From the NCBI RefSeq assembly GCF_058153355.1, contig NZ_CM177019.1: a stretch of DNA of 64,000 bases; one strand, 5' to 3'. The notes beneath the pieces were generated by a model that saw only the letters and a program-made list of their open reading frames with translations, was not told the DNA's origin and ran no database searches. The translations under genes were made by a program, and so were the position numbers. Below, piece by piece: positions 24,047 to 25,566 of this stretch (position 1 is the stretch's first letter; every line of letters starts with the position of its first letter).

Positions 24047-24649
24047 TTATTTATCATAATTTCTCAATTGCACAGCATCACAAAGATGTTCATTTTTTAT
24101 ATCATACGAATATTCTACTTCACTACCATCATCACATTTTTTTGGCTGTGAAAAAGCATGAATTATAATATTTTCGCCATGAGAGTCGCATTCATTTTGA
24201 AGTATATCCATATCTTCCTGTGAATATGCCTGCATATAACTATATGGATTTTTTAGAATTTCAGACAACGGGAAAACATCCTCTTTCAATGAAATAGAGT
24301 CACCCAATGCCAGTAATTTATAATAATAATCTTTATCACCACCTTCTAAATCCCATGTAAAAAGGAATTGTCCCTCATCCCAGAACACTATTGCATTACG
24401 TTCTCCAGTGGCCCAGTTAAGACCCAGCATACAGAAATTATTTTTTAAATAATTCTTTTTATATAACAATAATAAATATCTTAAAGATTCTTCATAATGA
24501 CTTCTGTAAGGATCTTTCATGGTAACATGAAAGTATGATTCAGGTTTATCCCTAAATATTCCGAAACCGGGGGATTCAGGCAATGGTTTCGATAACGCTT
24601 CACCTGCAAACATGAATAAAACAGACAATATGATACTTCTGATTTTCAT
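24047..24649 (-). CDS. Putative periplasmic immunity protein (Sec signal peptide)
   Basis: 200 aa, N-terminal signal peptide MKIRSIILSVLFMFAGEALS; start codon overlaps stop of upstream ORF (ATGA). Confidence 0.4.
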   Translation of the reverse strand: MKIRSIILSVLFMFAGEALSKPLPESPGFGIFRDKPESYFHVTMKDPYRSHYEESLRYLLLLYKKNYLKNNFCMLGLNWATGERNAIVFWDEGQFLFTWDLEGGDKDYYYKLLALGDSISLKEDVFPLSEILKNPYSYMQAYSQEDMDILQNECDSHGENIIIHAFSQPKKCDDGSEVEYSYDIKNEHLCDAVQLRNYDK

Positions 24650-25566
24650 TTCTTTTTTCTCTGGTTCGGGTCATCAATAAATGACTGTTCCAACCCATAG
24701 AAATCCTGACCAGCCAGACTAAATATTAATTTAAAATTATTGCCAGGGGATGATTTCCCCTGGGTTCTCCAGGCATAAACATCTTTAATATGTGGCAATG
24801 AAGAGTAGAGTTCTTTACCTCTTGCAATATCAATAGAATATTTTATTAACCGCCTATTTTCTAAAAAATATTTATTTTGTCCAATATTAGCGTTCTTAAT
24901 AAGATCATCTATATGGTCATCGACATCTTTTCTTAAACCTGGATAATTACTAAATCCGGCAATAACTCTTTCCACTCTAATCAGTCCCACTAATGTTTTA
25001 TTATTAGAGGGAACATCAAGACGATCAGGGCGAGAGAAAGTAAAACGATTTAATAACGCACGTCGCATATATTGCATTGATTTTATCGCGTCTTTTTCAT
25101 TATACTTTTCCCCACGAGTTAAAGGGGTTTTCGTCTCAGCCAGTAAGACCATTAGCATGGCTCGTTCACTCTCCGAAAGACCATCTGCGAGTGTTTCTCT
25201 TTTTATTTTACTAAGGACATTAACAGTTAAAGTTGGAAAACAATTTTTATATACTCCTCCAACTGTTGCCGGGCAATGCCCCAGATATGCTCCAGATGAA
25301 CTGGCGCTATCATAGGCATGAATGGTAGCGATTCCCAATCCTTTTGCCCGGACAACTATAGTTTGCTCCAGTTGTCCTGTTCTGGAAGACTGCTCAATTG
25401 ATAAAATACCGGGGCGAGATGATGCCAATTTTAGATGCTGACCTTTGGCATCAAACCCTCTTATCTTAATACGAAAAACATCCTTATCAGTCATATAATA
25501 AAAAAATTTATTCAATGCTGTTTTTGAGTCCGAGTTTGGACTAATGAAAATTTCACCATTCGCCAT
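24646..25566 (-). CDS. Putative type VI secretion cargo effector, unknown activity
   Basis: 306 aa from MANGEIF... with GAGG RBS 6 nt upstream (track start 25665 is an upstream extension); AT-rich, downstream of vgrG, coupled to a secreted partner. Confidence 0.4.
   Translation of the reverse strand: MANGEIFISPNSDSKTALNKFFYYMTDKDVFRIKIRGFDAKGQHLKLASSRPGILSIEQSSRTGQLEQTIVVRAKGLGIATIHAYDSASSSGAYLGHCPATVGGVYKNCFPTLTVNVLSKIKRETLADGLSESERAMLMVLLAETKTPLTRGEKYNEKDAIKSMQYMRRALLNRFTFSRPDRLDVPSNNKTLVGLIRVERVIAGFSNYPGLRKDVDDHIDDLIKNANIGQNKYFLENRRLIKYSIDIARGKELYSSLPHIKDVYAWRTQGKSSPGNNFKLIFSLAGQDFYGLEQSFIDDPNQRKKK

Follow-up and report, generated by a model that had tools for sequence, protein, structure and literature searches.

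T6EC3 of Acinetobacter rudis CIP 110305 is a type VI secretion system (T6SS)-associated toxin, in which PAAR is fused to an unannotated toxin domain that is a Foldseek homologue of SleB (4F55/4FET) (Geller et al. 2024, PMC11148199). In the E. coli periplasm, T6EC3 was toxic, an effect abolished by the E108Q substitution. Its immunity protein, T6IC3, bears a natural signal peptide; T6EC3 is encoded as an orphan, and with it the inner membrane was seen to separate from the outer one (PMC11148199). Here, we describe a comparable gene pair, encoding a predicted effector of 306 amino acids (aa) and a predicted immunity partner of 200 aa, located 3' of hcp-vgrG in an E. coli T6SS locus. The pair lies in a 64,000-nucleotide (nt) stretch of contig NZ_CM177019.1 (assembly GCF_058153355.1), hereafter the window. 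It probably encodes a T6SS cargo effector directed at peptidoglycan, whose glycan strands it would cut, together with a Sec-exported periplasmic immunity protein. For the effector chemistry, a lytic transglycosylase reaction has roughly an even chance.

The likeness to T6EC3 consists of a T6SS-associated SleB-like toxin without Pfam annotation and of features that are predicted for the window pair, namely periplasmic action, a candidate catalytic glutamate, and an immunity protein bearing a signal. In T6EC3, the glutamate lies about 20 residues into the toxin domain and is followed by about 180 residues, a spacing that would fit the enlarged domain found here. T6EC3 is a specialised PAAR fusion, whereas the window effector is a stand-alone cargo protein with an N-terminal immunoglobulin (Ig)-like domain. 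A T6SS effector with the SleB fold is already a known kind, represented by T6EC3, and the window pair is an uncharacterised family of it. Compared to the SleB/CwlJ enzymes themselves (Hydrolase_2, PF07486; PDB 4FET, 4F55), the window domain had no significant sequence match and is larger by about 60 residues. SleB/CwlJ is a germination enzyme for the muramic-delta-lactam cortex, whereas the window effector would be an interbacterial toxin with an immunity protein.

The Tge/Tgi families (Tse3/Tsi3 as Tge1, Tge2, and Tge3), reportedly described by Whitney et al. in 2013 (reference 49 of PMC12994826), combine an effector that cleaves glycan strands with an adjacent periplasmic immunity protein. 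The window pair resembles them in its predicted glycan-strand-cleaving effector delivered to the periplasm and in the adjoining periplasmic immunity protein. However, Tge proteins have lysozyme-like or other muramidase folds and not that of SleB, no sequence relation was detectable, and a 341-aa endolysin-like open reading frame (ORF) of the window is closer to them. Tse4/Tae17 of Acinetobacter baumannii is reported to be a bifunctional lytic transglycosylase-amidase T6SS cargo effector that kills E. coli (PMC11796386). It differs from the window effector in being bifunctional, much larger, and equipped with another transglycosylase domain, and no similarity between the two was detected. No SleB-like group was named in the available portions of the text and supplements of a Salmonella effector catalogue (PMC12994826).

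The two genes of the pair, and the insertion sequence (IS) remnant upstream of them, are located as follows.

24646..25566, minus strand: effector gene, 306 codons plus stop (ATG 25566-25564, TGA 24648-24646), two domains, without a Sec signal.
24047..24649, minus strand: partner gene, 200 codons (ATG 24649-24647, TAA 24049-24047), predicted Sec-exported periplasmic immunity protein.
25606..25737, minus strand: what is left of the 3' end of a transposase gene of the IS1 family, 90.9% identical to such genes over 132 nt.

A GAGG ribosome-binding site (25576-25573) lies 6 nt 5' of the effector ATG, and the two ORFs overlap by 4 nt at an ATGA (AAG AAA TGA / ATG AAA). The first-pass annotation had called the genes translationally coupled by this overlap; the ATGA itself is read in the sequence, and coupling is what the overlap would suggest. 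An alternative effector ORF of 339 aa with a TTG start at 25665 was rejected, as it enters the IS1-family transposase remnant. The effector homologues start at MANGEIF, and nucleotide similarity with the Salmonella copies starts at 25569, with nothing in common upstream. These observations, together with the position of the TTG extension inside the IS1 remnant, indicate that the 306-aa start is correct. Measured against three diverged copies, the ratio of nonsynonymous to synonymous substitution rates (dN/dS) ranged from 0.16 to 0.28 in the effector gene and from 0.18 to 0.19 in the partner gene. Since both ORFs also have homologues, they are more than chance reading frames, and judged by these ratios both genes are under purifying selection. 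The GC content was 0.327 at 24-25 kb and 0.382 at 25-26 kb, compared to 0.55-0.60 in the T6SS core (35-50 kb), in agreement with the AT-richness stated in the first-pass annotation.

Searches with the effector in Pfam, NCBIfam, PHROGs, PADLOC, and PDB sequences gave no match, and the earlier statement that the protein has no assignable motif held in all of them. Its structure was modeled by AlphaFold2 with a 143-sequence alignment (A3). The model was confident, with a predicted local distance difference test score (pLDDT) of 93.5 and a predicted TM-score (pTM) of 0.89, and was divided into two domains.

25213..25566, minus strand: N-terminal Ig-like beta-sandwich domain, aa 1-118 (AlphaFold2 model).
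24667..25203, minus strand: SleB/CwlJ-like C-terminal domain (aa ~122-300), which is predicted to be the toxin part and to cut peptidoglycan glycan strands.
25135..25137, minus strand: GAG codon of Glu144, a candidate for the catalytic residue, which closes the first helix at its C-terminal end within the motif LLAE-x3-P.

On the basis of this model, the C-terminal domain has the SleB/CwlJ cell-wall-lytic fold, and the effector is a distant fold relative of SleB but not a member of Pfam Hydrolase_2. Two full-length fold relatives in AFDB50 (TM 0.73-0.86) were named 'Cell wall hydrolase SleB domain-containing protein'. Helix 132-144 terminates at E144 and is followed by a loop and by helix 157-176, which carries the invariant N173-R174. 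The SleB order YGESRGE...ILNR is the same as the effector order LLAE144...N173-R174, as compared by the order of secondary structure. E144 was kept in 138 of 142 aligned relatives, and P148, M164, M167, N173, R174, F205, W266, T268, P274, and F289 were nearly invariant. Weak Pfam Hydrolase_2 matches appeared in only 3 of 143 relatives (E 0.002-0.1). When the effector was compared to the PDB by Foldseek, matches to its Ig-like domain dominated, and SleB was outside the top 50. The effector N-terminus was not hydrophobic (0.57, Kyte-Doolittle), and the four effectors examined all lacked a signal-like N-terminus. Structure prediction had been proposed in the first-pass annotation for this supposedly periplasm-acting protein of unknown activity. 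The modeled SleB/CwlJ-like C-terminal domain would fit action in the periplasm, and it probably narrows the activity to peptidoglycan glycan-strand cleavage.

A word-indexed search of 5.8 billion proteins returned only 11 relatives of the effector, from E. coli, Salmonella, Xenorhabdus, and one metagenome. A full hidden Markov model search with the alignment of these 11 expanded the set to 313 cluster representatives, which have the C-terminal ~180 residues in common. Among the matches listed, a search with the 143-sequence profile added only Acidovorax and Paracidovorax, and the profile scan of genome contigs with alignment A1 gave six Xenorhabdus loci only. The database names of the proteins of the effector and partner families were all 'hypothetical'. 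Effector homologues showed identities of 90/87/57/40%. Logan assembly L006 contains a 99.6%-identical copy of the pair; the block at window 26940-23805 recurs with 93.7% identity in four contigs from E. coli drafts or metagenomes, and Salmonella has an 81%-identical copy. In Xenorhabdus budapestensis, a degenerate pair was observed (L017, 8001-8634), with effector residues ~130-297 and the first 44 residues of the partner still detectable; this copy shows that the module decays in some lineages.

Domain architectures were obtained by reading relatives directly and by a Pfam scan of 143 relatives. The SleB-like domain was C-terminal on RHS-core proteins (P0154 and P0159; RHS_repeat E 2e-5), an arrangement that is the mark of a polymorphic toxin domain. 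It preceded a PG_binding_1 tail in P0096 (Pfam E 2.7e-14) and an SH3-like tail in P0076, and these cell-wall-binding tails point to peptidoglycan as the putative target. In P0080 and P0106, it was located behind tandem Ig-like repeats. None of the 143 relatives scanned with Pfam was fused to PAAR or VgrG. In five metagenome relatives (P0119, P0147, P0151, P0155, and P0161; L014), the SleB-like domain was N-terminal, and a long stretch of low complexity led from it to a conserved tail at the C-terminus. This tail, RLPPSGATAFDP...AG.KIPG, also written RLPPSGATAFDPRLTPAWAG.KIPG, was without a Pfam match; it may direct the proteins to another secretion system.

The 200-aa partner also had no match in Pfam, NCBIfam, PHROGs, PADLOC, or PDB sequences. 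Signal peptides were called from hydrophobicity, charge, and cleavage motif in nine partners and the four effectors.

24590..24649, minus strand: signal-peptide-like N-terminus of the partner, aa 1-20, MKIRSIILSVLFMFAGEALS, with basic n-region, hydrophobic core, and A-x-S site.

This N-terminus, MKIRSIILSVLFMFAGEALS followed by KP, contains two basic residues, a mean Kyte-Doolittle value of 2.9 over 10 residues, and the A-x-S site. All nine partner homologues examined likewise had a basic and then hydrophobic N-terminus, so that the Sec signal assigned to the 200-aa protein at first pass is borne out by these features. The mature part of all nine partners contained two or four Cys; C73 and C154 were invariant, and the second Cys pair was present in the enterobacterial copies. 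A partner homologue adjoined the effector gene at every locus with readable flanks, in five genera and in metagenomes. It was immediately 3' of the effector gene in five Xenorhabdus species, E. coli, and Salmonella, and likewise on the ERR027323 contig, on L013, and on a JGI metagenome contig, where the two genes again share 4 nt. Homology among the partners was detected by BLASTP (E 4e-15 to Xenorhabdus) and hhalign (E 1e-34). In Acidovorax, a related partner gene (hhalign probability 88%, E 3e-6) was immediately upstream of the effector gene. A signal-like N-terminus on the partners but not on the effectors is the signature of a toxin that acts in the periplasm and of an immunity protein placed there against it.

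The surroundings of the pair were examined in the window and at the other loci. In the window, the cargo region is headed by the following genes.

28682..30718, minus strand: vgrG (TssI), at the head of the cargo region (TIGR03361, E 6.9e-161).
30935..31453, minus strand: hcp (TssD) (TIGR03344, E 3.4e-62).

NCBIfam matches to TssB, C, F, G, J, K, L, H, A, M, TagH, and VasI were located on the other strand, and the T6SS gene set is complete. The vgrG cargo region proposed at first pass is confirmed by NCBIfam through hcp, vgrG, and the T6SS core genes. The order 5' of the pair is hcp, vgrG, a 433-aa ORF, the 341-aa ORF, a 216-aa ORF, and the IS1 remnant; 3' of the pair, a truncated 111-aa ORF is followed by a group II intron that IS21 interrupts. 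The E. coli drafts had the pair among IS elements, PAAR, and M23 genes behind vgrG. In Salmonella, it was behind Pyocin_S-DNase/immunity pairs in an array with PAAR, M23 genes, and vgrG fragments. In L013, PAAR, a 50%-identical effector homologue, and the partner followed each other directly. The first-pass proposal of an effector-immunity pair is supported by co-inheritance of the two genes, the vgrG/PAAR arrays, the RHS fusions, and the signal-like N-terminus confined to the partner.

In the proposed mechanism, the effector, having no export signal of its own, would be loaded on the VgrG/PAAR spike, possibly through its Ig-like domain, which might alternatively serve in substrate binding. 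It would be fired into the periplasm of neighbouring Gram-negative cells, where the SleB/CwlJ-like domain would cleave glycan strands with Glu144 as the catalytic acid, most likely by lytic transglycosylase chemistry. Rounding and lysis of the target cell would follow. The partner would be exported by Sec, lose its signal peptide, and be stabilised by disulfides in the periplasm, where it may bind and block effector molecules arriving from sister cells.

Several observations weigh against this proposal. The effector domain has about 180 aa compared to about 120 aa for the SleB catalytic domain, and the second Glu of GESRGE is absent. The Pfam search of the effector was empty even at E 10; the family profile matched only Ig-like S-layer domains and no SleB among PDB sequences at E <= 10; and comparison of the domain profile to one SleB sequence was not significant by hhalign (P 0.04, 27 columns) or hmmsearch. 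As the sequence-level matches were not significant, the SleB link rests on predicted structure. SleB requires muramic-delta-lactam, which is absent from Gram-negative walls, and the specificity of the effector must therefore differ. The partner model from a 7-sequence alignment was unusable (pLDDT 40), and promoter-like sites, like terminators, were not more numerous in the scan than in shuffled sequence. A genuine toxin-immunity pair might have another activity, as a hydrolytic muramidase, as an enzyme acting on another periplasmic glycan or lipid-linked precursor, or as a SleB-like binding scaffold. We consider this unlikely, given that almost all relatives have Glu at the equivalent position, that T6EC3 toxicity depends on the equivalent Glu, and that the PG_binding_1 and SH3-like tails point to peptidoglycan. 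Delivery raises a separate doubt, since the proteins could be a self-standing cell-wall hydrolase, for autolysis or remodelling or as a toxin exported by another route, with a periplasmic inhibitor, encoded by chance near vgrG in mobile DNA rich in IS elements. The Xenorhabdus pair sits between the phosphotransferase system (PTS) and paa operons, and the 8 kb around it yielded no VgrG, Hcp, or PAAR; the Acidovorax pair was among unrelated genes, with only an RHS gene 9 kb away; the RLPPSGATAFDP...AG.KIPG tail is perhaps the signal of a different secretion system; and in the window the IS1 remnant stands between the pair on one side and the vgrG operon and upstream effector-immunity set on the other, which uncouples the pair here. 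However, a hydrolase without a signal peptide would need another export route for a housekeeping role in the periplasm, the pair occurs in vgrG/PAAR arrays in three independent contexts, once directly behind a PAAR gene, and RHS fusions exist. Among accepted effectors, it is common for the effector-immunity pair to be an orphan lying far from any T6SS cluster, and T6EC3 is itself an orphan. A chance neighbour of vgrG is the least probable of the explanations considered here.

The state of this strain is a different matter from the identity of the pair. The tssM gene (46349-49868) is broken up between two frames, with an ORF of 981 aa that covers TIGR03348 positions 2-963 and one of 208 aa that covers positions 965-1168, and an 8-bp deletion (AATCCACG) after 49261, relative to intact E. 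coli tssM, is the cause of the split and a further point against active delivery. The T6SS of the strain is probably inactive, unless the deletion is a sequencing error; with this frameshift, delivery may be dead here, and only the immunity function would still matter. The pair could then be a stranded relic with intact genes, whose products are not delivered any more and may not even be expressed, and of which the immunity gene alone would be kept against the toxin of kin. Besides the tssM deletion, the IS1 remnant, the IS21-interrupted group II intron, and the truncated neighbours of the cargo region favour such a relic, and the pair was not found in any of the 5,426 complete E. coli genomes searched. 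However, neither ORF is shortened, another sample contains a 99.6%-identical copy, dN/dS is low, and the frameshift could have arisen very recently or through an error in sequencing. We regard a relic as a serious possibility, although not the favoured one; because it concerns the state of the strain, it is compatible with a peptidoglycan-cleaving T6SS effector and its immunity protein. Two further candidates were rejected. An anti-phage defence system is opposed by the absence of a PADLOC match and by the T6SS context, and a phage endolysin by the absence of a PHROG match and of phage genes nearby.

The 313 clusters (50% identity), distributed over Gamma-, Beta-, and Alphaproteobacteria and Myxococcota, might represent a large unnamed family of interbacterial toxins that cleave peptidoglycan, a proposal to which we give somewhat less than an even chance. 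Such a family would combine the Ig-like and enlarged SleB-like domains with a dedicated periplasmic immunity family, would be distinct in sequence from T6EC3, and would use several delivery routes, namely free T6SS cargo, RHS fusions, and the C-terminal tail. Its specificity or cleavage outcome would perhaps be unlike that of the classical T6SS muramidases and amidases, a possibility hinted at by the membrane separation observed with T6EC3. If confirmed, the pair would give a name and a predicted mechanism to two protein families labelled 'hypothetical' everywhere, and it would provide a second, stand-alone example of a SleB-fold toxin in T6SS warfare, and an immunity family that is new. E. 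coli/Salmonella would also become a tractable system for studying the adaptation of a germination-type lytic transglycosylase fold to Gram-negative walls and the part of the Ig-like domain in spike loading. The general view of T6SS effector action is unchanged by the pair.

Other features of the window were recorded around the pair. From mltD to dkgB, the flanking DNA matches E. coli chromosomes at 98.8% identity, which assigns the window to E. coli. The IS1 remnant lies between the 216-aa and 306-aa genes and ends 40 nt before the effector start codon; read from the sequence, it marks the upstream edge of the pair as a putative mobile block. A second probable cell-wall effector set, made up of the 433-, 341-, and 216-aa ORFs, is located directly after vgrG at 25764-28660. 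The 433-aa ORF contains a Peptidase_M23 domain (E 2.7e-6). The endolysin-like 341-aa ORF (26383-27408) matched PHROG 181 (E 1.6e-8) and contains a GRGMMQLT motif, and its Pfam GH19 match reached only E 0.36. The 216-aa ORF contains 7 Cys and begins with a signal-like N-terminus. Between the 433- and 341-aa ORFs there is an overlap of 50 nt; they may be one frameshift-split gene, or the 341-aa ORF may start further downstream.

Behind the pair, a Cys-rich 111-aa ORF (23899-23564) is apparently truncated by the 5' end of the group II intron. The intron extends over 19553-23589 and is interrupted by IS21 (istA 23123-21951, istB 21954-21154). Its parts were recognised as Rfam RF01999 at 23505-23388, RF00029 at 19628-19553, and a reverse transcriptase ORF at 21105-19684. 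Beyond the intron, in AT-rich DNA with a GC content of 0.37, an ORF at 17349-17861 matched the integrating-conjugative-element family PFL_4695 (E 1.9e-35), which suggests further mobile-element debris at the edge of the T6SS island. A second Hcp (TIGR03344, E 5.6e-60) corresponds to residues 130-285 of a 288-aa ORF (50868-51734). This ORF overlaps a 499-aa ORF (49738-51237) that had only a sub-threshold TssA match, and the true start of the second hcp is probably internal to the 288-aa ORF.

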